From: a bacterium | Lineage (GTDB): Bacteria > Sysuimicrobiota > Sysuimicrobiia > Sysuimicrobiales > Humicultoraceae | Reading direction: 5' to 3' | DNA: 34,291 bases | NCBI GenBank assembly: GCA_041497675.1 | Contig: JBGQGY010000027.1 | Location: forward strand, 1-34,291 | Part shown: piece after piece, positions 1-33,320 of the stretch | Layout of the letters: each line of letters opens with the position of its first letter | Numbering within the stretch: the first letter of the stretch is position 1 | Notes under the pieces: model-generated | Seen by the model: the letters and a program-made list of their open reading frames with translations, nothing else | The model's database searches: none | What the model was told of the DNA's origin: nothing | Translations under genes and position numbers: made by a program

Positions 1-1
1 A

Positions 2-14691: not shown

Positions 14692-15036
14692 ATGTTGCGC
14701 GGGTTCCTGACGCGGTGGCTGTTCAACGGCCTTGCCATTTGGGTCACCACGCTCCTCCCGATCGGCATTAGCGCCCCGGATACTCGGACGATCATCTGGG
14801 CCGCACTGGTGCTGGGTCTTGTCAATGCGTCGATCCGATGGCTGTTTATCATCCTCACCCTGCCGCTCAGCATCCTGACGCTCGGACTCTTCACCCTGGT
14901 CGTCAACGCGCTGATGCTGTATATCGTCAGCGCAGTGGTTCCAGGATTCCAGCTCGCCAACTTCTGGTCTGCCTTTGTGGGAGCGCTGATCATTGCCATC
15001 GTCAGCACGGGCCTCAGCCATCTCCTCGGACGGTAG
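14692..15036 (+). CDS. YvlD-like membrane protein (4-TM phage holin family)
   Basis: ALVLGLVNASIR...ILTLPLSILTLGLFTLVVNALML...VPGF....FWSAFVGA; strong SD before ATG 14692. Confidence 0.9.
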   Translation: MLRGFLTRWLFNGLAIWVTTLLPIGISAPDTRTIIWAALVLGLVNASIRWLFIILTLPLSILTLGLFTLVVNALMLYIVSAVVPGFQLANFWSAFVGALIIAIVSTGLSHLLGR

Positions 15037-15115
15037 CCGGTCCGCGCGCGTGCAGCGCCCGCGGGCTGGCGTCCACACGCGCCGGCGCGGCCCTCGCCAC
15101 CAGCCTGGCCGCGGG

Positions 15116-16000
15116 GTGCAGTTTGTCATCATCACGGGTCTGTCGGGTGCGGGCAAATCCAACGCCATGAAAGTGTTCGAGGACCTGGGCTTCTTTTGTG
15201 TCGATAATCTGCCGCCGGCCCTGCTTCCGAAGTTTGCCGATGTCGTGCTGCACTCGGGCGGCAAGGTCCGCCGCGTGGCGCTTGTCATCGACATCCGTGG
15301 CGGCGAGTTCTTCGACGAGCTCTTCGTCGCCTTGCAGCAACTCACGCGTCTGGGGCTGCGGTACGACATCCTGTTTCTCGACGCCGGCGACGACGTGCTC
15401 GTCCGCCGCTTCAAAGAGACCCGCCGCAAACACCCGCTCGCGAAGACCGGTCGCGTGCTGGACGGGATTCGCGCCGAGCGCCGGCGCCTCGAAGTCGTGA
15501 AGGGGCGAGCGGACAAGATCGTCGACACCTCGACGCTGACGGTCAAGGAACTCCGCGACGAGATCGTCTCGACGTACCTGCGGGACCGCAGGCCGGCGCG
15601 GCAGCTCGAGGTGAGCGTTATCTCCTTTGGATACAAGTACGGTATTCCGATCGATGCGGATCTCATCTTGGATGTCCGGTTCCTCCCTAACCCGCACTAC
15701 CAGGCGGCGCTCCGCCCGCTGCCCGGACATCACCAACGGGTCCGGCGGTTCGTGCTCGATCAACCCGAGACGCGTGAGTTCCTCCAGCGAATGTACAATT
15801 TCATTGACTACCTGCTGCCCCAGTTCGTTGCGGAAGGGAAGACACACCTGACCGTCGGCCTCGGCTGCACAGGTGGCCGCCACCGGTCGGTCGTGCTCGC
15901 CGATGACCTCGCGCGTCATCTGCGCGCCAGCCGGTGTCGCGTGCACGTGCGGCACCGCGACGTCCGCAAGGATCTGGCGCTGGCTGAGGCGGCGGAATGA
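15116..16000 (+). CDS. rapZ: RNase adapter RapZ / YvcJ P-loop NTPase
   Basis: FVIITGLSGAGKS, GFFCVDNLP, DIRG, RRFKETRRKHPL, SFGYKYG.P.DAD...DVRFLPNP, GCTGGRHRSV. Start uncertain (GTG 15116 or GTG 15050). Confidence 0.94.
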   Translation: MQFVIITGLSGAGKSNAMKVFEDLGFFCVDNLPPALLPKFADVVLHSGGKVRRVALVIDIRGGEFFDELFVALQQLTRLGLRYDILFLDAGDDVLVRRFKETRRKHPLAKTGRVLDGIRAERRRLEVVKGRADKIVDTSTLTVKELRDEIVSTYLRDRRPARQLEVSVISFGYKYGIPIDADLILDVRFLPNPHYQAALRPLPGHHQRVRRFVLDQPETREFLQRMYNFIDYLLPQFVAEGKTHLTVGLGCTGGRHRSVVLADDLARHLRASRCRVHVRHRDVRKDLALAEAAE

Positions 16001-17352
16001 GCAAGCGTTGGGGGCGCTGGCGCCGATGGTTGGCCCCGGGAATCGGGATCAAGCGATGGGGGGCGATGATCGCCGCAGGCGTGTTGGTGTTCGGGGCCGG
16101 CTTCGCCTTGCTGATCAACGAACGTTTTCTCACGCAGTTCGAGGCGGCGATCTTCCGGCTGGCCCAGTCGCTGGGACGTGTGACCGGTTACGAGGCCTCG
16201 CCCATGGCCCTGGGTGTCCTTGGGGTGACCCTCGGCGTCCTGGCCACGTTCTTCGGCGTCCGCGGGATGCTGCGCTCCATCGACCGCGTGTTGTTTCCCT
16301 CGGGGAGCCCGACGCTGGTCGACTTCCTCCGCCAAGAGCGCCGGCGCCGCCGCGGCGTGAACATCGCCGTCCTGGGCGGCGGGACGGGGCTCGCGACACT
16401 GTTACGCGGTCTGAAGCAGTACTCGTCGAACCTGACGGCCGTGGTGACGGTGTTCGACGACGGCGGATCGTCCGGGCGACTGCGGCGCGAGCTCGGTATC
16501 CTGCCGCCCGGTGATATCCGCCATTGTCTGGTGGCGTTGGCCGAGGCCGAGCCCCTGATGACCAAACTGTTCGAATATCGGTTCCGCGGCGGCGCTCTCG
16601 ACGGCCACGCCTTCGGGAACCTGTTCATCGCCAGCCTGGCCGGGGTCACCGGGGATCTCGAACTCGCGGTCAAGGAGACGAGCAAGATCCTCAAGATCCG
16701 CGGTCGAGTGCTGCCCACCACTGCGCACGACGTCGTTCTGGCCGCCGAACTCGACGACGGACGCATCATCGAAGGTGAGTCCAAGATCACCGGCGCCCGG
16801 GGCCGCATCACCCGCGTCTCGCTCCGCCCCGCCGATCCGACGCCGCTGCCCGACGCGCTCGAGGCCATTGCGGACGCCGATGTCATCGTCCTCGGCCCGG
16901 GGAGCCTCTACACCAGCCTGATCCCCAATCTGCTCGTCCCCCGTGTCGCCGACGCGCTGCGCGAGTCCGATGCGCCGTGTGTCTACATCTGCAACATCAT
17001 GACGCAGCCGGGCGAGACCGATGGGTACACCGCCGCCGATCACGTCCGCGCCATCCACGCGCATACGGGGACGGGGATGTTCTCACACGTGATCGTCAAC
17101 ACACAGATGCCGCAGAGCCGCGCGTTACGGGATCGCTACGCCGGGCAGGGCAGCCGCCCGGTCGAGCCCGCGATCGGTGAGTTGGAAGCCATGGGGCTTG
17201 TGGCGGTTGGGTTGCCGCTCATGAGCGAAGAGGAGCTTCTGCGACATGATCCGGTCCGGCTGGCCGCGGGGGTGCTGCACGTGATGGATCTCGCCCACGT
17301 CCGGCCGAGGCGCGGTCGCCGCCTCGCCGCGCTCGCCCAGGCGCGACGATAA
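15997..17352 (+). CDS. yvcK: YvcK/GlmR (UPF0052) protein with N-terminal membrane segments
   Basis: GGGTGL..LLRGLK, VTVFDDGGSSGRLR, PPGDIR.CL, GHAFGNL, GES.I, GPGSLYTS..PNL, NIMTQPGET, RHDP; ATGA overlap with rapZ. Confidence 0.93.
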   Translation: MSKRWGRWRRWLAPGIGIKRWGAMIAAGVLVFGAGFALLINERFLTQFEAAIFRLAQSLGRVTGYEASPMALGVLGVTLGVLATFFGVRGMLRSIDRVLFPSGSPTLVDFLRQERRRRRGVNIAVLGGGTGLATLLRGLKQYSSNLTAVVTVFDDGGSSGRLRRELGILPPGDIRHCLVALAEAEPLMTKLFEYRFRGGALDGHAFGNLFIASLAGVTGDLELAVKETSKILKIRGRVLPTTAHDVVLAAELDDGRIIEGESKITGARGRITRVSLRPADPTPLPDALEAIADADVIVLGPGSLYTSLIPNLLVPRVADALRESDAPCVYICNIMTQPGETDGYTAADHVRAIHAHTGTGMFSHVIVNTQMPQSRALRDRYAGQGSRPVEPAIGELEAMGLVAVGLPLMSEEELLRHDPVRLAAGVLHVMDLAHVRPRRGRRLAALAQARR

Positions 17353-17355
17353 ACC

Positions 17356-17460
17356 CGCGCGACGATGCACTCGCGATAGGATTCTCGACGCCCCACGACG
17401 AACCCGACGCCTCAGGTCCATACGGGTCCCGGAACGTCGAACCTTTGTTGTCGTCGCGCG
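17356..17460. ncRNA. Candidate rod-shaped structured RNA or repeat element between yvcK and nuoA
   Basis: Nested inverted repeats: CGCGCGACGA (17356-17365)/TCGTCGCGCG (17451-17460), TCGACG (17385-17390)/CGTCGA (17435-17440), ACCCG (17402-17406)/CGGGT (17423-17427). Confidence 0.35.
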
Positions 17461-17533
17461 TTCGGCGCTGAACACAGCCGCGTGAACGCGGGGGCGCAAC
17501 CGGTGGCCCGCGCGTGTGTGACGGGTGACGAGA

Positions 17534-17893
17534 ATGCTGCTGGTTGACTGGCTGTACGTGGGCGTGTTCGCGATCGTGGGGCTGCTGATGGCCGCGTTGC
17601 CGCTGGCGATCGTGTGGGCCCTGGCGCCGCGCTTGGCGCTTCCCCAGAAGCGCATGACATATGAATCTGGCGTCGTGCCCTTCGGTCAGGCCTGGGCGCA
17701 GTTCAATGTGCGCTACTATCTGTTCGGTCTGATCTTCGTGATCTTTGACGTCGAGGTCATCTACCTGTATCCCTGGGCCATCGTCTTCCGCCAGCTGGGC
17801 AAGTTTGCGTTCGTGGAAATGCTGATCTTTCTGGTCATCCTGATGATCGGCTTGGCCTACGCGTGGCGGAAAGGCGCGCTCGAATGGGCGTAG
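17534..17893 (+). CDS. nuoA: NADH-quinone oxidoreductase subunit A
   Basis: K..TYESG..P.G loop, [32 protein letters not shown]. Confidence 0.95.
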
Positions 17894-17924
17894 CATCGGG
17901 TCCGGGACGCCGGAGGACCTCAGG

Positions 17925-18929
17925 GTGGAGGTAAGCTGGCCGCTCGAGATCGCGAGGGCCGTCGGGCTGGCGGTCGTGATGTTCACCTTCATCGCGGTTG
18001 TCGCCGCGATGCTCGGGGTGCTGCTCGAACGCAAGATCGGCGGATGGATTCAATCCCGGTTGGGACCCAAACACGTCGGGCGCCAGGGTCTGCTGCAGAC
18101 GGTGGCGGACACCATCAAGTTGCTGCAGAAGGAACATATCACCCCGCACGCCGCCGACGGGCTGATCTTCAACACCGCGCCGTTGATCGTCGCCGTCGCC
18201 GGCCTCCTCGACTGGATCGTCATTCCGTTCGGCGTCGTGCACATCGGTGGGACCACGGTGCCGCTGGTGGTCCGGGACCTCAATATCGGCGTGCTCTTCT
18301 TCGCGGCCATGGCGTCCCTGACCGTGGTCGGGATCCTGGCCGGCGGGTTCGCCTCGAACAACAAGTATTCGTTGCTCGGCGGTCTGCGGTCGGCCTCGCA
18401 GATGATCAGCTACGAGTTGCCGCTCGCCACGGCACTCATTGCGGTGGCGATGCAGGCGGGCACGCTTTCGACCGTCGGGATCGTGAAAGCGCAAGAAGGC
18501 TGGTTTGGGTCGTTTGCGTTCTCACAGTTTCCGGCATTTGTCATCTTTCTGATCGCGGCGACCGCGGAAGTCAATCGCGTACCCTTCGATTTGCCGGAGG
18601 CTGAATCGGAACTGGTGGCGGGCTACTTCTCCGAATATACCGGGATGCGCTTCGCCCTGTTCCAGTTGGGCGAGTATGCCGAGATGTTCGCGATGGCGGC
18701 GCTGGCCACCACGCTGTTCCTGGGCGGGTGGAAGGGGCCGCTGCTGCCCCCGCTGATCTGGTTCATGATCAAGATGTACGCGGTGGTGTTCTTCCTGATG
18801 TGGACCCGCTGGACGTTCCCGCGGCTGCGGCTGGACCAGCTGTTGAACCTCTCGTGGAAGGTACTGCTGCCGGCAGGACTCGTCTGGATTCTCCTGACCG
18901 GGTTCGCGATCACGTTTCTGGCCAAGTAA
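17925..18929 (+). CDS. nuoH: NADH-quinone oxidoreductase subunit H
   Basis: ERK....Q.R.GP...G..GLLQ..AD..KLL.KE, SNNKYSLLGGLRSASQMISYE, AEVNRVPFDLPEAESELVAGY..EY.G, R...PR.R.DQL. Confidence 0.96.
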   Translation: MEVSWPLEIARAVGLAVVMFTFIAVVAAMLGVLLERKIGGWIQSRLGPKHVGRQGLLQTVADTIKLLQKEHITPHAADGLIFNTAPLIVAVAGLLDWIVIPFGVVHIGGTTVPLVVRDLNIGVLFFAAMASLTVVGILAGGFASNNKYSLLGGLRSASQMISYELPLATALIAVAMQAGTLSTVGIVKAQEGWFGSFAFSQFPAFVIFLIAATAEVNRVPFDLPEAESELVAGYFSEYTGMRFALFQLGEYAEMFAMAALATTLFLGGWKGPLLPPLIWFMIKMYAVVFFLMWTRWTFPRLRLDQLLNLSWKVLLPAGLVWILLTGFAITFLAK

Positions 18930-18932
18930 CCC

Positions 18933-19424
18933 ATGGGCGAATTGGCGGTCTTTGTCATTCTCTCGGCGATCACGCTGGCGTCGGCCGTCGTGGTCGTGAA
19001 TTCGGGCAACGTCGTGCGCGCGGCCCTGGCGCTTGTGCCCACGTTTCTCGGCGTGACCGGGTTCTATATCATGCTGCAGGCAGAGTTCGTGGCGGGCATC
19101 CAGGTGCTGATCTACGCCGGCGCGATCACGGTGCTGATTCTCTTCGTGATCATGCTGACCGAAGGGGGCACCGGGCAGCGCGTCCGCCAGCGCAACGAGC
19201 AGGTGCCGCTGGGGCTGCTGACGTCGGCGGCGCTGGCGGCGATCCTCATCTCGGTGCTGGCGCGCACCGAGTGGCCGAAGTCGACCGCAACGCTGCCGCA
19301 GTACACCGCGAGCGCGATTGGCACCACGTTTCTCACCGACGCGGTGCTCCCGTTCGAGGTGACCAGCTTGGTGCTGCTCGTTTCGCTGATGGGCGCGATT
19401 ATCATCGCGCGGCGCGAGAAGTAG
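18933..19424 (+). CDS. nuoJ: NADH-quinone oxidoreductase subunit J
   Basis: NVVRAAL.L, LQAEFVAGIQVLIYAGAITVLILFVIML, IG..F....LPFEVTSLVLLVSLMGAIIIAR. Confidence 0.94.
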   Translation: MGELAVFVILSAITLASAVVVVNSGNVVRAALALVPTFLGVTGFYIMLQAEFVAGIQVLIYAGAITVLILFVIMLTEGGTGQRVRQRNEQVPLGLLTSAALAAILISVLARTEWPKSTATLPQYTASAIGTTFLTDAVLPFEVTSLVLLVSLMGAIIIARREK

Positions 19425-19444
19425 AGACGGGGAGGGGCGGGCGC

Positions 19445-19756
19445 GTGCAGGTCGGTCTCACGCACTACCTGGTGGTCAGCGCGCTGCTGTTCTGCTTGGG
19501 CCTTTACGCGATGCTCACCCGCCGGAACGCCGTAGCGATCCTGATGGGCGTCGAGTTGATGCTCAACGCGGCCAACGTCAACCTGGTGGCGTTCAACAAG
19601 TTCGTCGCACCGGCGGCGGTGTCGGGGCAGGTATTCGCCCTAGTGGTGATCACTCTGGCCGCGTGCGAGGCGGGGGTAGGCCTGGCGCTCGTGATGGCCG
19701 CCTATCGCAACCTCGAGACGATTCACGTCGATGAGATCAATGTGATGAAGTGGTAG
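19445..19756 (+). CDS. nuoK: NADH-quinone oxidoreductase subunit K
   Basis: 3' part of ORF 18728..19756: YLVVSALLFCLG...RRN...LMGVELMLNAANVN, GQVFAL....AACEAGVGLA; SD GGAGGG before GTG 19445. Confidence 0.95.
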   Translation: MQVGLTHYLVVSALLFCLGLYAMLTRRNAVAILMGVELMLNAANVNLVAFNKFVAPAAVSGQVFALVVITLAACEAGVGLALVMAAYRNLETIHVDEINVMKW

Positions 19757-19760
19757 GCTG

Positions 19761-21704
19761 ATGCTCAACCTGGCGTGGCTGATCCCGCTGTTCCCGCTTG
19801 CGGCCTTCGTGCTGATCATCTGGCGCGGCCGCCGGCTTCCCGGTGAGGGCGCTTACATCGCGGTGGCCGGCATGGCCCTGGCCGCGGCGATGTCCATCGG
19901 GATCTTGTTCAACATGCTCGGCCACCCCCAGCCGGTCGACATGAACGTGAAATGGATGATGTTGGGCACGGTGCCGCTGGAGCTCGGGATCAGGGTCGAC
20001 CAGTTGACCACGATCATGTTGCTCGTGGTAACAGTTGTTGGGTCGATGATCTTTACGTACTCGATCGGGTACATGCACGGTGATCCGCGCTATCCTCGGT
20101 TCTTCGCCTATTTGTCATTGTTTGGCTTTTCGATGCTCGTGCTGGTGCTGGCGAACAATCTCCTGCTGCTCTACGCGGGGTGGGAGCTTGTCGGGCTGTG
20201 CTCGTACCTGCTGATCGGTTTCTATTTCGAGAAGCCGTCGGCGGCGCGGGCGTCGATGAAGGCGTTCTTGACCACGCGCGTCGGCGACTTCTTCATGTTT
20301 CTGGGGATCTTGCTGATCTTCTTCCACCTGGGGACGTTTCGGTTCGAAGAGATCTTCACCAAAGTGCATGAAGGGGCGCTCAAGGACTTGACCGTGGGTG
20401 GGTGGCCGCTCCTCACCGTGGCCGCGGTGCTGCTTTTTGGCGGCGCCGTGGGCAAATCGGCGCAGGTGCCGCTTCATACCTGGCTGCCGGACGCGATGGA
20501 GGGCCCGACACCCGTTTCAGCCCTGATCCACGCCGCGACCATGGTGGCCGCGGGCGTGTATCTGGTCGCGCGTACCTACACGCTGTTTTTCGCGTCGACG
20601 GGCCAGGAAGCGCTGCACGTGGTCGCCTGGATCGGGGGCATCACGGCGCTGATGGCTGCGACCATCGGGGTCGTCCAAAACGACATCAAACGCGTGCTGG
20701 CCTATTCGACCATCAGCCAACTCGGGCTGATGATGATGGGTTTGGGCGTGCTGGGGTATACGGCGGGCATGTTCCACTTGATGACGCATGCCTTCTTCAA
20801 GGCGCTGTTGTTCCTGGGCGCGGGTAGTGTCATCCATGCCATGCACACGAACGACATCAAGGACATGGGCGGTCTGGCCAAGGTCATGCCGTCGACGTAC
20901 TGGACCTTCCTGATCGGCACGCTCGCACTGGCCGGCGTGTTCCCGTTTGCCGGCTTCTGGAGCAAGGACGAAATCCTGTTGGAGGCGTTCCACCACAACA
21001 CGGCGCTTTTTGCGATGGGCGCGCTCACCTCGTTTCTGACGGCGTTCTACATGTTCCGCGTCATCTTCTACACGTTCACGGGGACGCTGCGCAGCCATTC
21101 CGCGCATCCGCATGAGAGTCCAAACGTCATGACCCGGCCGCTGTGGGTGCTGGCAATCTTCTCGGTGTTCATCGGCCTGGTCGGGGCGCCGTTCCTGGGG
21201 AACCCGTTCCACAAGTTCATCCACTTCGAAGGCATCGAGGCGATTCCGTTCGACGTGACGCTGGCACTCGCGTCACTCGCGATTGCGGGGGCCGGGATCC
21301 TTTCCGCGGCGGCCGTGTACTACTGGAAGGTCATCCCGTCTGCGTCGCTGCGCCGGGCCGTGGGGCCGCTGCACGCCCTGGTCGTCAACAAGTACTACTT
21401 CGACGAAGTGTACCAGGCCGTGTTTGTGCGCGGGACGCTGTGGATCGGCCAAGCGCTGCGCGCGTTCGACGTCTACGTCATCGACATGCTGGTGAACATG
21501 GTGGGGCTCGGCGGTATCGGGCTGGCAAACCTCTACGGGTGGTTTGACACTCACATCGTAGATGGCATGGTGAACTTGACGGCCTACGTGGTGGGCGCCG
21601 CGGGCGGGCGGCTGCGGTACTGGCAGACCGGACGCGCACAGAACTACCTGCTCGTGATCGCGCTCGGCGTGATCATTTTAGTCGCGGCCGGGCTGCTCCG
21701 GTGA
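19761..21704 (+). CDS. nuoL: NADH-quinone oxidoreductase subunit L with lengthened lateral helix
   Basis: YSIGYM, RFFAY..LF, GWELVGLCSYLLIGF, GKSAQVPLHTWLPDAMEGPTPVSALIHAATMV, DIKRVLAYSTISQLG, HLMTHAFFK, GFWSKDEI, QTG..QNY. Confidence 0.96.
   Translation: MLNLAWLIPLFPLAAFVLIIWRGRRLPGEGAYIAVAGMALAAAMSIGILFNMLGHPQPVDMNVKWMMLGTVPLELGIRVDQLTTIMLLVVTVVGSMIFTYSIGYMHGDPRYPRFFAYLSLFGFSMLVLVLANNLLLLYAGWELVGLCSYLLIGFYFEKPSAARASMKAFLTTRVGDFFMFLGILLIFFHLGTFRFEEIFTKVHEGALKDLTVGGWPLLTVAAVLLFGGAVGKSAQVPLHTWLPDAMEGPTPVSALIHAATMVAAGVYLVARTYTLFFASTGQEALHVVAWIGGITALMAATIGVVQNDIKRVLAYSTISQLGLMMMGLGVLGYTAGMFHLMTHAFFKALLFLGAGSVIHAMHTNDIKDMGGLAKVMPSTYWTFLIGTLALAGVFPFAGFWSKDEILLEAFHHNTALFAMGALTSFLTAFYMFRVIFYTFTGTLRSHSAHPHESPNVMTRPLWVLAIFSVFIGLVGAPFLGNPFHKFIHFEGIEAIPFDVTLALASLAIAGAGILSAAAVYYWKVIPSASLRRAVGPLHALVVNKYYFDEVYQAVFVRGTLWIGQALRAFDVYVIDMLVNMVGLGGIGLANLYGWFDTHIVDGMVNLTAYVVGAAGGRLRYWQTGRAQNYLLVIALGVIILVAAGLLR
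21465..21620 (+). repeat. Degenerate 78-bp (26-aa) tandem repeat in the NuoL lateral helix
   Basis: FDVYVIDMLVNMVGLGGIGLANLYGW (from 21465) and FDTHIVDGMVNLTAYVVGAAGGRLRY (from 21543); TGGTGAAC recurs at 21490 and 21568, 78 bp apart. Confidence 0.85.
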
Positions 21705-21768
21705 CCACGCTTGTCCCGAGGCCGGTTGAGCACATCTCGTGTTGTTATATGAGGAGGACATTGGGCTG

Positions 21769-23277
21769 ATGGAGAGCCACCTGCTGACGATCACCGTGTT
21801 CCTCCCGCTGCTTGGCGGGCTGGTCGTCTTGCTGATTCCCAAGCAACACGAAGCCACGATGAAGCAGGTGGCCCTGATTGCCGCAGTGCTGGCGTTTCTG
21901 GCGTCGCTGTGGCTGTTGGGTGTCTTCGAGATCGGCAAGGCCGGGATGCAACTCCAGGAGCGGTTCCTGTGGGTTCCCGGTATCGGCGCGAACTACCACC
22001 TGGGGATCGACGGACTCAGCCTCCCCCTGATCATCCTCACGACGCTACTCTCTCTGCTCTCCATCGTGTACTCCTGGCGCATCGACATGCGTCTCAAAGA
22101 GTATCTGTTCCTCTTCCTGCTGCTGGAGACCGGTATGCTGGGCGTGTTCGTCGCGCTCGACTTCTTCCTGTTCTACGTGTTCTGGGAAATCACGCTGGTG
22201 CCTATGTACTTCTTGATCGGCATCTGGGGCGGGCCGCGCCGCGAGTACGCGGCCATCAAGTTCTTCCTCTACACGCTGGTCGGCTCGCTCGCCATGCTGC
22301 TGGCCATCCTGCTGCTGTACTTCAACGCCGACCCGCACACGTTTGGCATTCTCGAGTTGATCAAGCAGCAGCCGCTGGCCAAGGCGCCGGTTCTGGCGGG
22401 CCTGGCGTTCTGGGGATTCTTCCTCTCGTTCGCCATCAAAGTGCCGATGTGGCCGTTCCATACCTGGCTGCCCGATGCCCACGTCGAGGCGCCGACGGCC
22501 GGCAGCGTGATCCTGGCGGGTGTCCTGCTGAAACTCGGGACCTACGGCTTCATCCGGGTTAGCCTCCCGATGCTGCCCGAGGCGTTCAAGGAGTTCGCAC
22601 CGATCGTCGCCATCCTCGCGCTTATCGGCATCGTCTACGGCGCGCTGGTGGCCATGGCGCAACCCGACTTGAAGAAGCTCGTCGCGTACTCGAGCGTGAA
22701 CCACATGGGCTACGTCATGCTGGGCATCTCGGCCGCGGCCGCCGCCGTTGGGGTGCCCGAAAAGGCCCACGCGGCGACCATCGCCCTCAACGGGGCTGTG
22801 TTTGAGATGATCGCGCACGGCGTAATTACCGGCGCGTTATTCTTGATCGTCGGCGTGATCTATGACTACCGGGCGCACACCCGCGGCGTCAACGACTTCG
22901 GCGGTCTGGGCGCGCGGCTCCCCGTCTATACCGGCGTGACCATGGTCGCGATGCTGGCGTCGTTGGGTCTGCCGGGGTTGATGGGATTCGTCGCTGAGTT
23001 CCTGATCTTTGTCGGATCGTTCGGCATCTTTCCGCTCCTGACGACGGCGGCCGTGACGGGCGTGATCTTCTCTGCCGCGATGTTTCTCTGGACCATCCAG
23101 CGCATCTTCTTGGGCCCGCTGAATCCCAAGTGGGCCGATCTGGCCGACATCGATCGGCGGGAGGTGCTGGCGCTGGCCCCGCTGGCCGCGCTCATGCTGC
23201 TCTTCGGGGTGTATCCGAAGCCGCTGCTGGACATGATCAATGCCGCGATGACGACGTTGATGACCGTCGTCAAGTAG
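21769..23277 (+). CDS. nuoM: NADH-quinone oxidoreductase subunit M
   Basis: LGIDGLS, FYVFWE..LVPMYFLIGIWG, AAIKFFLYT, AIKVPMWPFHTWLPDAHVEAPTAGSVILAGVLLKLG.YG, KKLVAYSSVNHMG, GLPGLMGFVAEF; SD GAGGAGG 21751-21757 supports ATG 21769. Confidence 0.96.
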   Translation: MESHLLTITVFLPLLGGLVVLLIPKQHEATMKQVALIAAVLAFLASLWLLGVFEIGKAGMQLQERFLWVPGIGANYHLGIDGLSLPLIILTTLLSLLSIVYSWRIDMRLKEYLFLFLLLETGMLGVFVALDFFLFYVFWEITLVPMYFLIGIWGGPRREYAAIKFFLYTLVGSLAMLLAILLLYFNADPHTFGILELIKQQPLAKAPVLAGLAFWGFFLSFAIKVPMWPFHTWLPDAHVEAPTAGSVILAGVLLKLGTYGFIRVSLPMLPEAFKEFAPIVAILALIGIVYGALVAMAQPDLKKLVAYSSVNHMGYVMLGISAAAAAVGVPEKAHAATIALNGAVFEMIAHGVITGALFLIVGVIYDYRAHTRGVNDFGGLGARLPVYTGVTMVAMLASLGLPGLMGFVAEFLIFVGSFGIFPLLTTAAVTGVIFSAAMFLWTIQRIFLGPLNPKWADLADIDRREVLALAPLAALMLLFGVYPKPLLDMINAAMTTLMTVVK

Positions 23278-23287
23278 AGTCGGGTCG

Positions 23288-24730
23288 ATGCGGATCCCTG
23301 TCGAAGAACTGGCCCTGCTGGCCCCGGAGTACTGGCTCGCCGCCCTCGGGGTCCTGCTGGTCCTCCTGGATCTCTTCACAGCGGATGACCAGAAAGTGAT
23401 CGTCGGGTGGGCGGCCATCGCGGGTCTGGCGCTGAGTCTGATCCCGATCCTCGGGATGTTCGGCGCTCCCGGCCGGACCGTCTTTTTCAATACGTACGCC
23501 GTCGACGGGTTTGCGGTCTTCTTCAAGATCATCATCGTCGTCTCGACGATCCTGGTGATCCTCGCGGCCATGGACTACTTCCGCGGGCAGACCCGGTTCG
23601 AGGGCGAAGTGTACATTTTGATGACCTTTGCCGCGCTGGGGCTGTTCTTGATGGCGGGCAGCGCCGATTTGATCCTGCTGGCGCTGTCGATCGAGTTCGT
23701 GAGCCTGGCGTCGTACGTCATGGCCGGGTACTTCAAGATGAACGCCAAGAGCAACGAGGCCGGTATCAAGTACTTTCTCTTCGGCGCCGGCGCGTCGGCC
23801 CTGATGATCTATGGGTTTTCCATCCTCTACGGCCTGACCGGTGAGACCGGCCTCTACGCGATCGCCGAAAAGGTGAAGTCGAGCCCGCAGCCCGCGCTCA
23901 TCGTTGCGATCGGTTTGGCGCTGGCCGGGTTTGGCTTCAAGATCTCGATGGTCCCGTTCCACCAGTGGACGCCGGACGTCTATGAGGGCGCGCCGACACC
24001 GATCGCGGCGTACCTGTCGGTGGCGTCGAAGGCCGCCGGGATCGCGGCGCTCGTGCGTCTGCTGCTGGTGTCGGTCGCGCCGAGCGCGGTGGATTGGGTC
24101 ACGCTCATCGCGGGGCTGTCGGCGCTCAGCATGACCGTCGGCAACCTCATGGCCCTGCCGCAACGCAACATCAAGCGCATGCTGGCCTATTCGAGCATCT
24201 CGCATGCCGGCTTTCTCTTGATGGGTGTCGCCGCGTATAAGGGGACCTTCGGGGCGCCGGGCTTGCTGATCTACATCCTCGCCTACACCTTTACGAATCT
24301 CGGCGCGTTTTTCGTTGCGACCCAAGTCGAGGAACGACTGCGGTCCGAAAGCATTTCCGACTATGCCGGGCTGGCCCAGCGCTCACCGATGCTGGCGTTC
24401 CTGATGGCGTTGTTCATGTTGTCCCTGACCGGCATCCCGCCGACCGCGGGGTTCTTTGGAAAGTTCTACATCTTTGGGGCCGCTATCAACAACGGTCTCC
24501 TGTGGTTGGCGATCGTCGGGATCGTGAACAGCACCATCTCGCTCTACTACTACGTGGCGGTGATTCGCGCCATGTACCTCCTGCCGCCCGCCTCTTCAGA
24601 ACGCATCGCCGAAACGCCCGCGCTCGGCGTCGCCCTTGCTATCACCGGGGTGGCCACGCTGGTCATGGGCATCTTCCCCCAACCATTCATCGACCTCGTC
24701 GGGAAGGCAGCGTTGTTCTTGCGCTTCTGA
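23288..24730 (+). CDS. nuoN: NADH-quinone oxidoreductase subunit N
   Basis: SIEFVSL.SY, SNEAGIKYF, GFKISMVPFHQWTPDVYEGAPTP, ASKAA, NIKRMLAYSSISHAG, SLTGIPPTAGFFGKFY, SLYYY. Confidence 0.96.
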   Translation: MRIPVEELALLAPEYWLAALGVLLVLLDLFTADDQKVIVGWAAIAGLALSLIPILGMFGAPGRTVFFNTYAVDGFAVFFKIIIVVSTILVILAAMDYFRGQTRFEGEVYILMTFAALGLFLMAGSADLILLALSIEFVSLASYVMAGYFKMNAKSNEAGIKYFLFGAGASALMIYGFSILYGLTGETGLYAIAEKVKSSPQPALIVAIGLALAGFGFKISMVPFHQWTPDVYEGAPTPIAAYLSVASKAAGIAALVRLLLVSVAPSAVDWVTLIAGLSALSMTVGNLMALPQRNIKRMLAYSSISHAGFLLMGVAAYKGTFGAPGLLIYILAYTFTNLGAFFVATQVEERLRSESISDYAGLAQRSPMLAFLMALFMLSLTGIPPTAGFFGKFYIFGAAINNGLLWLAIVGIVNSTISLYYYVAVIRAMYLLPPASSERIAETPALGVALAITGVATLVMGIFPQPFIDLVGKAALFLRF

Positions 24731-24752: not shown

Positions 24753-24784
24753 AAGCCGCGTCAGGACTGCGTCGCGGCTTCTTG
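24753..24784 (+). terminator. Hairpin after nuoN, possible weak terminator
   Basis: AAGCCGCG (24753-24760)/CGCGGCTT (24773-24780) with only a short U-containing tail; a further hairpin GCGCTTC/GAAGCGC (24721-24740) spans the nuoN stop. Confidence 0.4.
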
Positions 24785-24811
24785 ACGCGTCCTGGGAGCG
24801 TTTGTTACCAT
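24782..24811 (+). promoter_or_regulatory. Sigma70-type promoter of the V/A-ATPase operon
   Basis: TTGACG (24782-24787), 18-bp spacer, extended -10 TGtTACCAT (24803-24811). Confidence 0.65.
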
Positions 24812-24825
24812 GGCGTAGGTGTGTG

Positions 24826-24856
24826 CCCCCAGGGCGCCGCGTCCTGGGGGTTTCTT
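24826..24856 (+). terminator. Terminator-like hairpin in the ATPase leader
   Basis: CCCCCAGGGCG-ccg-CGTCCTGGGGG (11 bp, one G-U pair) followed by TTTCTT. Confidence 0.5.
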
Positions 24857-24884: not shown

Positions 24885-25241
24885 ATGAGCACGCATAAGG
24901 CGGATCACGGGCACGACCATCGCACCGGCGACCATCTCCTCAACCTCATCGCCGAGAAAGAACGAGAGCTTGAAGGCCGCGTCAGCGCCGCACGCCAGGA
25001 GGCGGCGTCGATCGCCGCCCAGGCGCGCACCGAAGCCGAGCGCATCTTGTCCGAGACCCGCCAGCAGATGGTGGTCTTGACCCGCGAGCACGAGCAGCGT
25101 CTTGAAGCCGAGACCGCCCGGATCCAGCGCGAACTCATGAGCCAAGGCCGCGCTAATGTCGAGACGCTCCGCCGGCAGGCGGCGTCCCGCCGCGCGGCAG
25201 CCGTCCAGCTCGTCGTCGACCACGTCATCACAGGCGTTTGA
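24885..25241 (+). CDS. V/A-type ATP synthase peripheral stalk subunit G (also named H)
   Basis: Charged, Ala-rich coiled coil (IAEKERELEGRVSAARQEAASIAAQARTEAERIL); first gene of the operon as in Thermus. Confidence 0.8.
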   Translation: MSTHKADHGHDHRTGDHLLNLIAEKERELEGRVSAARQEAASIAAQARTEAERILSETRQQMVVLTREHEQRLEAETARIQRELMSQGRANVETLRRQAASRRAAAVQLVVDHVITGV

Positions 25242-25244
25242 CCC

Positions 25245-27188
25245 ATGATCGTTGAGATGAACCGGGTGCTCCTCTTCGGCCCGAAGCGCCTGCTTGCCGG
25301 CGTGCTGGACGAAGTGCAGCGCATTGGTGCCGTCCACATCGATCGTATCGAGGCCGAGGAAGGCCCGCTCGCCGCGATGGGGGTGGACCAGGAGGCGGCG
25401 GCAGAACAGGCCGCCCTCGAACGCCTACGCGTCCGGGTCGACGGACTACTCGGTCTCTTGCCCGAGGTCCCCGGCGAGCCCACTAGGAGTGGCGACCCGA
25501 CGCCGACCGGCATCGATGCGATTGACGCAGCCGTCGGCGCGATCGAGGCTGACATCCAGGGCCCGAGCAAGCGGCGCGTCGAGCTTCAGGAGGAACTCGA
25601 ACTCATTCACATGTACGAAGGCGCCGTCCGCGTCCTGGCACCACTGCACGGCGCGCTCGCGGGCAGCCGGTCGCTCAAGACCGTCGGGTTCATCCTCCGC
25701 AGTAAAGACCTCACCGTCGTCGCCGCGCTGCGCCATCAGCTCGCCGAGATGACCGAAGGGCGCGTCGAGGTCGTGAGTCGCGTGATCGAGGAAGGCAAGA
25801 TCGGCGTGGTGGTGGCCTTCCTGCACCGCGATGCCGAGACCATCCAACGGTTCCTGACGCAGGCCGGGATCTCCGAACTGCGGCTCCCAGAACGCTACGG
25901 CGGGATGGGGCCCATGGAAGCGATCCGCCTCATGGAGCAGCGACTCGCCGCGCTGCCGGCTGAACTGGATGCGGTACGCAACGCGCTGACGGCCGCTGCG
26001 CGGCGATACCGGCCGCAGCTAATGGCGCTGCGGGCGCCGGTCGCCGACCGGCTGGCCCAGCTGCGCGTCCTGCCCAACCTGGCGCAGTCGAGATACGCGT
26101 TTGTCGTACACGGCTGGGCGCCGGCGGCAACAATGACGGAGATTCGCGCGACGCTGCGCCGGCGGTTCGGCGACGACGTCGTCGTCTACGATGCCCCGGC
26201 CGATCCACACGAAGCGGCACAGGTCCCGGTGCTGCTGGACAATTCCCCTGCGCTTCGGCCGTTCCAGCGGCTGTTGGGATTGTTCAGGCCGCCACGCTAC
26301 GGCACGCTCGATCCCACGCTCTACCTGGCGATCTTTTTCCCAATTTTCGTCGGCGTCGTCATTGGCGACGTCGCCTACGGCGCGCTGCTCTTTGCCTTCG
26401 GGTGGTGGATGCGCAACAAGGCGCGAAAAGGGGAGACCTGGGTCGTTCCTCTTGTGGGGTTTCGCCTGTCGCCTGTCGTCCTCGTCGATGCCTCCTGGAT
26501 CATCCGGGTCATGTCGACGTGGACCATCATCTTCGGCGTCTTCTATCTGGAGTTCTTCGGGAACCTGCTGGAGCACCATCTTGGCTGGCACCCGATTTTC
26601 AACAGGGTCGAGCTCACGACGGCCTTCTTCGCTTTGACCATCTCCCTCGGGATCGTACAGGTCATGTTAGGCTACGTGCTGCACCTCATCCTGGCCGCTC
26701 GGCACAAGCACGCCTTCGGTATCGTCGAGTCGCTGGCCATGATCTGCGGCGTGCTGGGCTTGCTCGCGGTGCTCGGGGCCATGGGGAAGCAGTTGCCGCA
26801 GGCACTCTTCACGCCCGGCGTCTTCTTGCTGATGGCGTTCCTGGCGTTCGTGCTGATCGGTGTGGCGCTCAATCGGCTTGCGCTGATGTGGCTGCTGGAA
26901 GCGATCTCGGGCATGGGCAACGTGTTGTCCTATGCCCGGTTATTTGGCGTCGGGCTGGCCGCGGCGGTACTGGCGAACGTCGCGAATCAACTCGGCGGCC
27001 TGGTGGGGTCCATCTGGGTCGGCATCGTGGTCGGCATCTTCATCCAGATGGTTTTCTTCATCTTTACGATCCCGGGCCACATCATCCAGCCGGCCCGTCT
27101 CAATTGGGTCGAGTTCCTGACCAAGGTGAAATACCACGATGAAACCGGCAACTCGTATCGTCCGCTCGAAAAAACAGGAGGTGACTAG
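25245..27188 (+). CDS. atpI: V/A-type ATP synthase subunit I (a)
   Basis: GW.P, VPVLLDN....PFQ, PRYGTLDPT, GDVAYG, GNVLSYARL (essential Arg), GHIIQPARLNWVEF. Confidence 0.93.
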   Translation: MIVEMNRVLLFGPKRLLAGVLDEVQRIGAVHIDRIEAEEGPLAAMGVDQEAAAEQAALERLRVRVDGLLGLLPEVPGEPTRSGDPTPTGIDAIDAAVGAIEADIQGPSKRRVELQEELELIHMYEGAVRVLAPLHGALAGSRSLKTVGFILRSKDLTVVAALRHQLAEMTEGRVEVVSRVIEEGKIGVVVAFLHRDAETIQRFLTQAGISELRLPERYGGMGPMEAIRLMEQRLAALPAELDAVRNALTAAARRYRPQLMALRAPVADRLAQLRVLPNLAQSRYAFVVHGWAPAATMTEIRATLRRRFGDDVVVYDAPADPHEAAQVPVLLDNSPALRPFQRLLGLFRPPRYGTLDPTLYLAIFFPIFVGVVIGDVAYGALLFAFGWWMRNKARKGETWVVPLVGFRLSPVVLVDASWIIRVMSTWTIIFGVFYLEFFGNLLEHHLGWHPIFNRVELTTAFFALTISLGIVQVMLGYVLHLILAARHKHAFGIVESLAMICGVLGLLAVLGAMGKQLPQALFTPGVFLLMAFLAFVLIGVALNRLALMWLLEAISGMGNVLSYARLFGVGLAAAVLANVANQLGGLVGSIWVGIVVGIFIQMVFFIFTIPGHIIQPARLNWVEFLTKVKYHDETGNSYRPLEKTGGD

Positions 27189-27189
27189 G

Positions 27190-27513
27190 TTGAAGAAAGG
27201 ACTGTTCTTGCTTGGACTGACCGCCGTCGTCTTGTTGCTGGGGGCCTCCTTGGCGCTTGCGGCAGAGGCGACCCCCGAGGGGGGCAAGCAACTTACCCTG
27301 GCGCACGGGTTGCTGGGCCTCGCGGCGGCGCTGGCGGTCTTCGGTGGCGCCATCGGCACCGCATGGGCGCAGTCTCGCATCGGCGCGGCGGCGGCCGGCG
27401 CCATCGCCGAGCGTCCGGAGATCGGCGGCCAGATGCTGATCTTCCTCGTGCTTCCCGAGACGCTCATCATCTTTGGCTTCCTCGTCGCGTTCTTTATCAT
27501 TGGCAAGATCTAG
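27190..27513 (+). CDS. atpK: V/A-type ATP synthase proteolipid subunit K/L (c) with signal peptide
   Basis: AQSRIGAAAAGAIAE.P...LIFLVLPETLIIFGF; SD AGGAGG 27176-27181 gives TTG 27190; N-terminus MKKGLFLLG...ASLALA is signal-peptide-like. Confidence 0.93.
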   Translation: MKKGLFLLGLTAVVLLLGASLALAAEATPEGGKQLTLAHGLLGLAAALAVFGGAIGTAWAQSRIGAAAAGAIAERPEIGGQMLIFLVLPETLIIFGFLVAFFIIGKI

Positions 27514-27520
27514 CGTTGGC

Positions 27521-28102
27521 ATGAGCTCCGAACTCATCACGCTGCTGGAGCGCGAGGCCGCGGCCGAGCGGGAGAATATTCTCACCGAGGCGCGAGCCCA
27601 GACCGAGACGGTCGTGGCGGAGGCCCGCCGGCAGGCCCAAGAACTGCTGGCGGCCCACAAGGAACGGCTGGAGGCGGAGGCCCGGGTGGCCCGGGTGCGG
27701 GCGCAGAGCACCGCGCACCTCCGCGCCTCCTCGCAGGTCTTGCAGGCGAAGGAAGAGGAGATCGCGCAGGTCTTTGCGCGCGCCGAGGCCGAATTGGCCC
27801 GGATCCCCGGCGACGGGCAACGGTACCCGGCCATCCTGCGCGCGTTCATCGACGAAGGGTTGGGCGGTCTCGAGCGTGCGGGTGTCGTCACGGTCAACCC
27901 GGCCGACCAGGCCGCCGCACAGGCGTTGCTGAAAGAGCGCGGGTCGGCCGTCACCGTGCGCACCGATCCCGCGATAGTCGGCGGGGTCAAGGTGACCTCG
28001 CCCGACGGGCGATTTGTCTTGACCAATACCCTGGCGTCGCGTCTGGAGCGGGCCCGCCCGATCGTCGCGGCGGACGTGGCACGGGCCCTGTGGGAGTCAT
28101 GA
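27521..28102 (+). CDS. atpE: V/A-type ATP synthase subunit E
   Basis: N-terminal coiled coil (LLEREAAAERENILTEARAQ), VNPAD, IVGGVKV.S.DG....NTLASRL; ATG 27521 follows the subunit K stop. Confidence 0.9.
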   Translation: MSSELITLLEREAAAERENILTEARAQTETVVAEARRQAQELLAAHKERLEAEARVARVRAQSTAHLRASSQVLQAKEEEIAQVFARAEAELARIPGDGQRYPAILRAFIDEGLGGLERAGVVTVNPADQAAAQALLKERGSAVTVRTDPAIVGGVKVTSPDGRFVLTNTLASRLERARPIVAADVARALWES

Positions 28103-28111
28103 CCTCGGCGA

Positions 28112-29143
28112 ATGCCTGACTTTCCGTACATCAACGCCCGTGTGCGCGCGATGCGCAGCCGGCTGATGACCCCCGGCCAGCTTGAAGAGTCGCTGGGCGC
28201 GCCGACATTGGACGCCTTTCTGCAGGGACTCTCCACGACGCCCTACAGCTTCGACCTGCAAGAAGCGCTGCTACGGTACGAGGGGCTCCGTGCGGTCGAT
28301 GAGGCATTGTCGCACAGCCTGGCGAGGACCACGCGGACAATATTGGGATTTGCCGACGGGCGGGCGCGCGACCTCATCAGCCTCGTGCTGCTGCGCTGGG
28401 ATCTGGCGAACCTCCGGGTCATCGTCCGTGGCAAACGCAGCGGCCGGCCAACCGACGAGATCGTCCAGGCGCTGCTGCCGGCGGGCAACCTGAGCGACGT
28501 GGTGCTCAAAGAAATGGCCGGGTACCCGGACATCGCGGCGCTGGCGGGGACGCTCGAGTCATTGGACCATCCCTTGGCGGGTCCGCTCGCGCAAGGGGTC
28601 GCCGCGTATGCGAAGACCAAAGATGTTATGGAGCTCGAGCTGCATCTCGAGCGCGGGTATGCCGAATTCGCTCTGCGGCAGGCGAAGCGGCTCGGTCAGG
28701 ACGCGGCAGTCCTGGGCGAGTTCTTCCAGGCCGAGGTCGACGCCTCCAACGTGAAGACGGCGCTGAAACTGGCCTCGGCGGACGGCCTCTCGGAGGAGCG
28801 GCGTCTGCAGTTCTTCATCCCGGGCGGCGCCGGCGTCAACGACCGGCTCTTTGCGGCGTTGTCGTCCGCACAAACGCAGGCGGCGGCGTGGGAGCGGCTC
28901 CGCGCCCACCGATTCCCGATCAAAGAACTGCCACAGGATCTGGTCGCTTTCGAGCGCGAGCTCGACGGGCGGATCGGCAAGGCGCTCGCGGCCCGCTATC
29001 GGGGTGACCCGCTTGGCGTCGACATCGTGCTCGGGTATCTGGCGATGAAATCGGCGGAAGTGAGCAACCTCCGGATGATCGCACGGGGCAAGTTCCTGGG
29101 GCTCCCGCGCGAAGCCGTGAGGAAGGAGATGCTCGTTGTATAA
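28112..29143 (+). CDS. atpC: V/A-type ATP synthase subunit C (d)
   Basis: F.YINARVRAMRSRL, RWDLANLRVIVRG, FIPGG, YLAMKSAEVSNLRMIARGK. Confidence 0.92.
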   Translation: MPDFPYINARVRAMRSRLMTPGQLEESLGAPTLDAFLQGLSTTPYSFDLQEALLRYEGLRAVDEALSHSLARTTRTILGFADGRARDLISLVLLRWDLANLRVIVRGKRSGRPTDEIVQALLPAGNLSDVVLKEMAGYPDIAALAGTLESLDHPLAGPLAQGVAAYAKTKDVMELELHLERGYAEFALRQAKRLGQDAAVLGEFFQAEVDASNVKTALKLASADGLSEERRLQFFIPGGAGVNDRLFAALSSAQTQAAAWERLRAHRFPIKELPQDLVAFERELDGRIGKALAARYRGDPLGVDIVLGYLAMKSAEVSNLRMIARGKFLGLPREAVRKEMLVV

Positions 29144-29453
29144 GCTCGGCATCATCGCCGATCCTGAGAGTGCAACCGGTTTTCGGCTGGCCGGCGCGGA
29201 AGTGCGCGAGGCCACCTCACCACAGGCGGCCCTCGAGCACCTTCGACACTTCGTGCAACACGACTACGGATTGGTGGCGATCATTGAATCGCTGCTCGTG
29301 GGCACCGAGGAGCAGCGGTTTCGCCTGATGCGCGGCCGCGATCTGCCGATCATCCTCCCGATCCCGGCGCCGCAGGCCGAGATCGAGAGCGGCGAGGCAT
29401 ACATTGCGCGGTTGGTCAAAGAGCATATCGGCTTCTACGTGAAGTTGCGATAG
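29136..29453 (+). CDS. atpF: V/A-type ATP synthase subunit F
   Basis: [35 protein letters not shown] start with SD AAGGAG. Confidence 0.92.
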
Positions 29454-29466
29454 CGAGGGGGTTGTG

Positions 29467-31227: not shown

Positions 31228-31231
31228 CTCC

Positions 31232-32647: not shown

Positions 32648-32678
32648 GGCGCAGCGGATCCAGCAGGGAGCCGGCAGC

Positions 32679-33320
32679 ATGGCCGACATGATCAGCCCGA
32701 CCCGCATGAACCTGCTGCAGCGCCGCGACCAGCGGCGTGTGGCCGAGCAGGGCGTCGACCTCTTGAAGCGCAAGCGTGACGCCTTGGTCGCGGACTTCTT
32801 CAAAATTGTGAGAGCGTCGCTGGCCGCCCGGGAACGGCTGGCGGCGGCCTGCCGTGAGGCCTACGTGATGCTGTCCGTGGCCAAAGCGGTCGAGGGCCGC
32901 GAAGCGCTCGAAGCGGCCGCGCTGCCCGCGGCGCGCGACATCACCGTGGAGATCGACATCCGCAACGTCTGGGGTACGAAGATCCCCGAAGTCACCGTCA
33001 CCCCGATCCGCCGCCAATTGCTGGACCGCGGCCAGAACCCCGTCGCCACCAGCGCCCGGGCCATCGCCAGCACCGCCAACTTCGAAGAAGTCGTCGAAGC
33101 CATCCTCGCGGTGGCGGCCACCGAGATCAAGCTGCGCAAGATCGGCGAAGAGATCAAGAAGACGACCCGGCGCGTGAACGCCCTGGAGCAGGTGGTCATC
33201 CCGCGGCTGCGGGCGGAGATCCGCTTCATCGCCTCGGTGCTCGAGCAGCGGGCGCGGGAAGATGTGTTCCGGCTGAAGCGTATCAAGAAGAAGCTGGAGG
33301 CCAAGGAAGCGGGGGCGTAG
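32679..33320 (+). CDS. atpD: V/A-type ATP synthase subunit D
   Basis: PTRMNL, G.DLLKRKRDAL, NVWG...P, EEIKKTTRRVNALEQVVIP, LEQRARED.FRLKRIK. Confidence 0.96.
   Translation: MADMISPTRMNLLQRRDQRRVAEQGVDLLKRKRDALVADFFKIVRASLAARERLAAACREAYVMLSVAKAVEGREALEAAALPAARDITVEIDIRNVWGTKIPEVTVTPIRRQLLDRGQNPVATSARAIASTANFEEVVEAILAVAATEIKLRKIGEEIKKTTRRVNALEQVVIPRLRAEIRFIASVLEQRAREDVFRLKRIKKKLEAKEAGA

Follow-up and report, generated by a model that had tools for sequence, protein, structure and literature searches.

The window, by which the whole stretch of 34,291 nucleotides analysed here is meant, is contig JBGQGY010000027.1 (C27) of assembly GCA_041497675.1, a metagenome-assembled genome (MAG) of 272 contigs that is 98.6% complete with an estimated contamination of 3.6%. 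Its host belongs to the candidate phylum CSP1-3 / Sysuimicrobiota and is placed near 'Candidatus Fervidifonticultor' (Humicultoraceae). The subject of this work is a complex I operon in the window: seven consecutive open reading frames (ORFs), arranged head to tail on the plus strand, were assigned by Pfam to one complex I membrane subunit each, in the order nuoA-H-J-K-L-M-N (Table 1), and these seven subunits (NuoA, H, J, K, L, M and N) make up the complete set of the membrane arm (P-module). The cut-offs of the NCBIfam models were passed by NuoH, NuoL, NuoM and NuoN. The nuoA/nuoH gap comprises 31 bp and the nuoH/nuoJ gap only 3 bp; tblastn with the genome's own copies gave no match to NuoB, NuoC or NuoI on this contig, and the family searches, which were run across the whole genome, gave no match to NuoB, NuoC, NuoD or NuoF on it. 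An earlier note on this DNA, made from the letters alone, had described the operon as a membrane arm lacking all genes for hydrophilic subunits, and Pfam, tblastn and the family searches bear out this description.

The same note had named misassembly at the two short gaps as an alternative. Both the nuoA/nuoH and the nuoH/nuoJ junction are covered, at 99% identity or more, by contigs from 4/4 independent public runs, one of which may be the MAG's own source sample; in two of the runs (X1, X2) one contig spans both junctions, in the other two (X6, X18) two overlapping contigs do so, and the mismatches number 0-6 per piece. Misassembly at these junctions is excluded.

The docking and pumping motifs had been claimed to be intact, and indeed YESG of NuoA, ERK and PFDLPEAESELVAGY of NuoH and ELM and CEA of NuoK are present in the window and, like the Glu/Lys sets of the antiporter-like subunits, essentially invariant among orthologues. 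We take the motifs that were checked to belong to the E-channel, the quinone cavity and the Q-module interface. All 57 NuoA orthologues have both Glu residues, that of YESG and that of FDVEV. Eight acidic residues of NuoH, including those of the PFDLPEAESELVAGY motif, are kept in every orthologue covering them (58-59 per position), the Tyr of transmembrane helix (TM) 3 of NuoJ in 58/58, and, in NuoK, Glu37 in 57/57 and Glu75 in 55/57. The Glu, Lys, His, Lys and Lys-Asp positions of NuoL are conserved in all covering orthologues, E150, K234, K265 and E420 of NuoM in 15-16 of 15-16, and E136, K218, K248 and K392 of NuoN in 15/15. Charges are kept in both the E-channel and the antiporter-like subunits (TM5 Glu; TM7, TM8 and TM12 Lys/Glu; the two NuoK Glu), with NuoA Asp75, which varies (D in 35, A in 13, E in 8, S in 1), being the sole exception among the residues checked.

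The solved chains to which the window subunits were aligned have these motifs too. Among them, NuoH is closest to M. smegmatis NuoH and cyanobacterial NdhA, NuoL to T. elongatus NdhF and NuoN to T. elongatus NdhB; the alignment of NuoL with NdhF covers residues 4-562 and 595-640, the lateral helix and anchor region included. The pairwise ratio of nonsynonymous to synonymous substitution rates (dN/dS) is 0.04-0.26 versus three closer relatives and 0.15-0.52 versus the more distant L096, with dS near saturation in these pairs; the value for NuoN of L082 (0.73, 29% identity) was left out, as the hit is paralogous and lies beyond the contig end. A Mrp-type cation/proton antiporter was ruled out by the presence of NuoH and NuoA and by the scores of NuoL, NuoM and NuoN, which are far higher on Nuo than on Mrp models; NuoJ is present as well. 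Judged by the retained residues, the dN/dS values and the model scores, the operon is neither decayed nor a Mrp antiporter, and on this point the earlier note is upheld.

The separate nuoB-D-I-C locus

The inventory of complex I-like modules was based on family searches, tblastn and Pfam over all contigs (Table 1). Besides the operon of the window, the genome contains a complete canonical 14-gene operon, a nuoB-D-I-C locus lying at the ends of contigs C191 and C219, and further clusters with NuoB- or NuoD-like proteins. The nuoB-D-I-C locus is the sole NuoB/NuoD-type module of the genome that has no membrane subunits of its own, since the others either have their own antiporter-like and NuoH-like subunits (the cluster on C57, and that on C115 taken together with the start of C23) or are soluble (C23), so that there is one orphan Q-module for one orphan P-module. 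One of the group-4-like clusters, that of C115/C23, is broken at contig ends and its large subunit is unassembled. NuoF homologues are encoded at two places only, the canonical operon and the Hox cluster.

The products of the orphan locus are referred to as NuoB2, NuoD2, NuoI2 and NuoC2. C191 and C219 share an end overlap of exactly 141 identical bases, and at the place of this break nuoD is uninterrupted in all relatives; because the genome's own nuoD is cut there, NuoD2 was read from the orthologue of a related genome, G009. Equivalents of His38 and Tyr87 of T. thermophilus Nqo4 are kept in this orthologue, NuoB2 keeps the four ligands of cluster N2 (CC...C...C), and NuoI2 keeps both CxxCxxCxxxCP motifs (ligands of N6a/b); a Q-module of NuoB, C, D and I, with the N2 and N6a/b ligands and the His and Tyr of the quinone site, is thus present. 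No nuoE, nuoF or nuoG was found beside either locus in 15 relatives. The window P-module and the separate NuoBDIC Q-module very probably constitute one second, N-module-less complex I-like enzyme.

It had been proposed in the earlier note that the membrane arm is a stand-alone module accepting one or several peripheral arms encoded elsewhere. A partner is indeed encoded elsewhere, but an arm that stands alone or serves several modules is not supported: in the census of nuoB/C/D/I and group-4 loci, a single peripheral module was found to lack a membrane arm of its own. In its broadest form such a reading would make the membrane arm a shared docking platform, open to hydrogenase-type modules as well as to the canonical NuoBCDEFGI and the orphan NuoBDIC. 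In its favour, no Q-module is encoded next to the arm, several NuoB/NuoD-type modules exist in the genome, and a possible role of 11-subunit enzymes as docking platforms for various donors was proposed by Moparthi and Hagerhall (as quoted in PMC11238625). However, the idea as quoted concerns donors to the Q-module and not swapping of Q-modules, hybrids between complex I clades are rare according to Spero et al., and all other NuoB/NuoD modules have their own membrane subunits or are soluble, with one orphan Q-module for the one orphan P-module; hence a shared platform appears quite unlikely.

Two further genes lie at the orphan locus. A SUOX-family molybdoenzyme of 559 aa (C219, 402-2081, minus strand) follows nuoC2 on the same strand in 11/15 relatives. 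It scores under the cut-offs for SorA, SoxC, SorT and MsrP, and four N-terminal hydrophobic segments are followed by an internal Tat-type SRREFL signal; since these segments precede the signal, the catalytic domain should be periplasmic, and the enzyme was on this ground rejected as an electron-input module. It may be an uncharacterised membrane-anchored periplasmic molybdenum enzyme that draws on the quinol pool. Directly 5' of nuoB2 lies a gene for a Rieske [2Fe-2S] ferredoxin that is small, soluble and of the dioxygenase-ferredoxin/NirD type (C191, 3163-3513, plus strand). It adjoins nuoB2 only within the window's own family (4/15 loci), and more distant homologues lie 2-4 kb away in six other Q-loci; because it is adjacent in only 4/15 loci, it is not proposed as the electron donor.

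Conservation in the phylum and relation to known systems

In the genome collection used, the phylum comprises a single order (94 genomes), and several of its members carry NCBI record titles that name Armatimonadota or, for L096 and L097, Bacillota. Thirty P-loci were compared, that of the genome itself and those of 29 relatives from seven families; two unpublished genomes (G010, G019) contribute two loci to each set of 30, and the conclusion is independent of both. The gene nuoA adjoins nuoH in 30/30 P-loci, nuoH is followed by nuoJ in 29/30, the remaining locus being cut by a contig end, and no match to NuoB, NuoC or NuoI occurs in any of the 30. Likewise the order D-I-C was found in 30/30 Q-loci, with nuoB upstream in 28 of them and the other two cut by contig ends. 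NuoH of the window type (at least 62% identity) is present in 91/94 genomes of the phylum, the three genomes without it being 68-84% complete, and at least two NuoH matches, i.e., a second copy of canonical type, were obtained in 84/94. Of 41 genomes, 34 have a whole window-type NuoI and two have fragments of it at contig ends; the remaining five, which lack it, are 59-92% complete. This is essentially the situation that the earlier note had set against its own proposal, as simple fragmentation of an operon: a single peripheral block elsewhere, here B-D-I-C, and a split that is common across the lineage.

In G009, which is near-complete in four contigs, both loci lie on one contig of 3.15 Mb, 1.73 Mb apart. 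It is extremely unlikely that the arrangement is an artefact of assembly or binning, caused by chimeric junctions at which genes went missing or by B-D-I-C contigs of another organism: the fragmentation of the MAG and its estimated contamination would allow for it, but the junctions are reproduced in all four runs and in 29 relatives, and G009 holds both loci on a single contig.

Some loci depart from the common form in other respects. In one subgroup of CSP1-3-type loci (L098, L099, L100, L101), NuoH is longer by an insertion of ~50 residues (385-388 versus ~325 aa), and the tblastn match is broken in two near residue 270-280. Other lineages scatter their nuo genes differently. In Calditrichia (L104) the order is A-C-D ... 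H-J-K-L-M-N, with no match to NuoB or NuoI in the locus. Among Planctomycetota (L113, L115, L136, L137, L142, L144, L145, L147, L148, L152, L154), many Phycisphaerae and Planctomycetes have a nuoH without any other nuo gene in the flanks covered, which reach up to 9 kb on each side.

The orphan Q-block lacks nuoEFG and so points to an enzyme of the 11-subunit type, for which, according to PMC11238625, the donor is not known and ferredoxin is the usual proposal. NuoD2 is devoid of a segment of ~25-28 residues (DRKVALPPR...SMEAVIHHFK) that is kept by all eight NuoD of the 14-subunit type that were examined, and the deletion is common to all examined NuoD encoded in EFG-less operons or separate Q-loci. 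Its carriers in the alignment (L161, L164, L165, L187-L190, L102, L103, L106, L110, L119, L160) include the 11-gene EFG-less operons of Dehalobacter, Thermincola, Desulfarculales and Melainabacteria and the separate Q-loci of Anaerolineae. The segment is kept by T. thermophilus Nqo4 and also by cyanobacterial NdhH; because NdhH keeps it without an N-module, the deletion marks a clade but does not by itself prove the absence of an N-module. The window clade of the NuoH tree is found with the EFG-less types, and the canonical copy of the same genome lies on the other side of the branch (support 81/94). By gene content, the NuoD deletion and the position in the NuoH tree, the second enzyme is of the 11-subunit type, without a dedicated N-module.

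The two-locus enzyme could alternatively be an NADH dehydrogenase that borrows the single NuoEFG of the canonical operon, and most genomes of the phylum do hold both, as the 84/94 with at least two NuoH matches indicate. Against this stand the grouping of NuoD2 and NuoH with enzymes from EFG-less operons and the lack in NuoD2 of the segment kept by the eight 14-type NuoD, though the latter only marks the clade, as the case of NdhH shows. Borrowing of NuoEFG is considered unlikely.

Nearest in sequence to the window system are the contiguous 11-gene EFG-less operons, which share with it the same eleven subunits, intact quinone-site residues and Fe-S ligands, the NuoD deletion and the side of the NuoH tree. 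These enzymes are encoded in one contiguous operon (L102, L106, L110), whereas here two distant loci are sorted by module, and the window enzyme, unlike them, coexists with a canonical 14-subunit enzyme.

A split of this kind is already known in Chloroflexi, and it is extended here to a whole candidate phylum. In the '2M' complex I of Chloroflexi (Chadwick et al., 2018, in the form in which PMC7117926 and PMC6606698 present it), nuoBCDI lies apart from the operon of membrane subunits and nuoEFG is lacking. Among the Anaerolineae loci seen here, the P-loci have the order A-H-J-K-L-M-M-N (L109) or A-H-J-K (L156, L157), and separate Q-loci with C-D-I or B-C-D-I are located elsewhere in the same genomes (L189, L190). 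The window system resembles 2M in that its Q genes are apart from the membrane operon, in the lack of nuoEFG and in the NuoD deletion. It differs in having one nuoM, as do the 15 CSP1-3-type loci that reach nuoM (L096 and L097 included), in the length of NuoL (647 aa versus ~720 aa at L109; one-M enzymes have 617-672 aa), in having nuoC and nuoD separate, with nuoC after nuoI, where 2M has a fused nuoCD, and in the order of the Q-operon (B-D-I-C versus B-C-D-I), and it belongs to a different phylum. NuoH of Chloroflexi and of CSP1-3 are grouped together by a branch of the best tree (support 52/19), and a joint Chloroflexi/CSP1-3 clade of NuoD is not rejected (approximately unbiased (AU) test, p = 0.17); the trees neither show nor reject a single origin of the split with Chloroflexi.

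Orphan nuoAHJKLMN operons, termed 'partial NDH-1', were described beside a complete nuoA-N in Salinispora, Streptomyces and Kocuria (PMC3314556, PMC6676996). By gene content they are like the window operon, i.e., seven membrane-subunit genes with a complete operon elsewhere. These papers report no partner Q-module and describe a horizontally acquired pump, in contrast to the dedicated Q-module and vertical conservation found here. Both papers, that of Penn and Jensen (PMC3314556) and PMC6676996, read the seven-gene operons as ion pumps, and the window arm might by analogy with the marine actinomycete operons translocate ions or act as an antiporter by itself, with no Q-module; that it adjoins an ATP synthase operon would fit. 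Such a role is highly unlikely, since NuoH and NuoA keep the residues of the Q-module interface and of the quinone cavity, a matching intact Q-module is conserved alongside the arm, and the arm would have no energy source without a redox module.

The genes of cyanobacterial and chloroplast NDH-1 are scattered over several loci. Like the window system, this enzyme has an eleven-subunit core without an N-module, and its NdhF and NdhB are the best solved relatives of NuoL and NuoN. On the other hand, NdhS (PF11623) was not found in the 98.6%-complete genome (the control was positive in Synechococcus), NuoD2 is without the segment kept by NdhH, and NuoB2, NuoI2 and NuoM are closest to non-cyanobacterial solved chains. 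Cyanobacterial NDH-1 can accept electrons from ferredoxin, as stated in PMC11238625. The set of papers searched gave no account of an A-H-J-K-L-M-N / B-D-I-C split in CSP1-3, and in the genomic description of the phylum 'nuo' is absent from the text, the supplements being outside this scope.

Flanking genes and transcription signals

Comparison of synteny, which the earlier note had suggested, places the adjacency of nuoA and nuoH and the D-I-C order within a larger conserved block, that of sucCD, rapZ, a cofD-like gene, nuoAHJKLMN and the A/V-type ATPase. The ATPase genes lie 3' of nuoN in all 14 related loci that extend past nuoN, and a cofD-like gene lies 5' of nuoA in 18 related loci. Genes of the tricarboxylic acid (TCA) cycle are also encoded upstream in the window (sdhAB, fumC, icd, mdh and sucCD, by Pfam).

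Table 1. Positions of complex I-like modules and of features flanking the window operon (window, C27; further contigs of the same genome as named)
Feature	Contig	Position	Strand	Assignment or remark
nuoA	C27 (window)	17525-17893	+	PF00507, 9.5e-36; alternative ATG start at 17534 equally possible
nuoH	C27 (window)	17925-18929	+	PF00146, 1.4e-116; NF004741, 343 bits vs cut-off 305
nuoJ	C27 (window)	18933-19424	+	PF00499, 7.5e-36
nuoK	C27 (window)	19445-19756	+	PF00420, 2.3e-29
nuoL, 647 aa, with C-terminal lateral-helix region	C27 (window)	19761-21704	+	PF00361, PF00662, PF01010; NF005141, 708.8 bits vs cut-off 556
nuoM, single copy	C27 (window)	21739-23277	+	PF00361; TIGR01972, 588.8 bits
nuoN	C27 (window)	23288-24730	+	PF00361; TIGR01770, 413.5 bits
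Membrane-arm operon A-H-J-K-L-M-N	C27 (window)			
Q-locus: Rieske ferredoxin, nuoB, nuoD (split by contig break), nuoI, nuoC, SUOX-family molybdoenzyme, DUF2203	C191 and C219	contig ends		
Complete canonical 14-gene operon nuoA-B-C-D-E-F-G-H-I-J-K-L-M-N	C4			
Group-4-hydrogenase-like cluster	C57	5876-13070		NuoB-like, NuoH-like, two antiporter-like, fused NuoC/D-NiFe large subunit
Second group-4-like cluster	C115	6006-11577		NuoK-like fusion, two antiporter-like, NuoB-like, NuoC-like; runs off contig
NuoH-like fragment and 2x[4Fe-4S] gene	C23 (start)	1-584		grouped with C115 cluster
Soluble Hox-type NAD-linked hydrogenase	C23	10376-14789		NuoF-like, NuoB-like fusion, NiFe large subunit
rapZ and cofD/yvcK-like genes, upstream neighbours	C27 (window)	14993-17352	+	Pfam
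Non-coding leader, cofD/yvcK-like gene to nuoA	C27 (window)	17353-17524	+	no ORF assigned
Terminator-like hairpin, nuoN to A/V-ATPase operon	C27 (window)	24825-24851	+	12-pair stem, 9 G-C pairs, then TTCTTGT; predicted, consensus match
A/V-type ATP synthase operon, downstream neighbour	C27 (window)	24885-33320	+	Pfam: V-ATPase subunits G/H, I, E, C, A, B, D

The leader of nuoA contains no sigma-70 consensus site and no Rfam family, and the Rfam scan of the window gave no family either. The single promoter-like site of the scan lies between nuoN and the ATPase operon, with a site count not above that of shuffled sequences; in this gap of 154 bp, which ends at the first ATPase gene, the promoter-like site is accompanied by a strong hairpin with a T-rich run (window 24782-24851). 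Because of the two signals in the gap, the nuo operon and the ATPase operon are suggested to be separate transcription units.

Two ORFs on the minus strand of the window deserve a comment. An ORF of 259 aa (6565-7344) that has no Pfam match lies between the gene for the succinate dehydrogenase flavoprotein and fumC and may encode the succinate dehydrogenase membrane anchor. In the flavoprotein ORF (4763-6940; 725 aa) the FAD domain begins at residue 137, so either the true start is further in or the protein has an N-terminal extension.

A probable second coupling site

In the proposed mechanism the window P-module and NuoB2, NuoD2, NuoI2 and NuoC2 would assemble into a single enzyme. Electrons from a donor other than NADH would enter at the clusters of NuoI and pass through cluster N2 in NuoB, quinone would be reduced at the NuoD/NuoH pocket, which is the direction of operation that we infer, and protons would be pumped by NuoH/A/J/K together with NuoL, NuoM and NuoN. 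The presence of five alpha-type genes of 2-oxoacid:ferredoxin oxidoreductases in the genome implies that reduced ferredoxin is made by the cell; reduced ferredoxin is the likeliest donor, although the case for it seems to us about evenly balanced.

Several points weigh against a second enzyme built from these two loci. Their pairing is drawn from the inventory and from co-occurrence, and co-occurrence cannot tell partners apart, since nearly all genomes of the phylum have both loci and the canonical operon as well. A ferredoxin-docking subunit was not identified: NdhS was not found, and when the ORFs of 15 Q-loci were clustered, B, D, I and C were the only genes shared by all 15, with no extra conserved partner. 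The contamination estimate of 3.6% and the incompleteness of one group-4-like cluster at contig ends also have to be considered, as does the chance, small as it is, that the canonical NuoEFG serves the second enzyme. With the pump encoded beside the ATP synthase operon and the redox module elsewhere, the two halves might be regulated and assembled independently of each other. A conditional pairing of the P-module on this basis, either with its own NuoBDIC or with the canonical NuoBCDI-EFG, or its transient existence without any Q-module, is judged very unlikely; if true, the operon would encode a switchable coupling site rather than a fixed enzyme.

As regards the origin of the fixed two-locus enzyme, which we favour, a contiguous A-B-C-D-H-I-J-K-L-M-N operon cannot be converted into the two loci by one cut, since BCD and I have to be removed from two separate places and united, and C placed behind I. 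The gene orders suggest that the split was a module-wise reorganisation, by which membrane proteins were collected in one operon and soluble Fe-S proteins in another; no intermediate gene arrangement occurs among the loci examined.

For annotation, it follows that such genomes should not be scored as having an incomplete or decayed complex I. The NuoD deletion offers a simple sequence marker for N-module-less enzymes and could mark their clade. For the organisms themselves, the finding means two coupling sites of complex I type in members of the phylum, of which the first is NADH-linked and the second probably links ferredoxin, produced by 2-oxoacid oxidoreductases and in autotrophic pathways, to the quinone pool.

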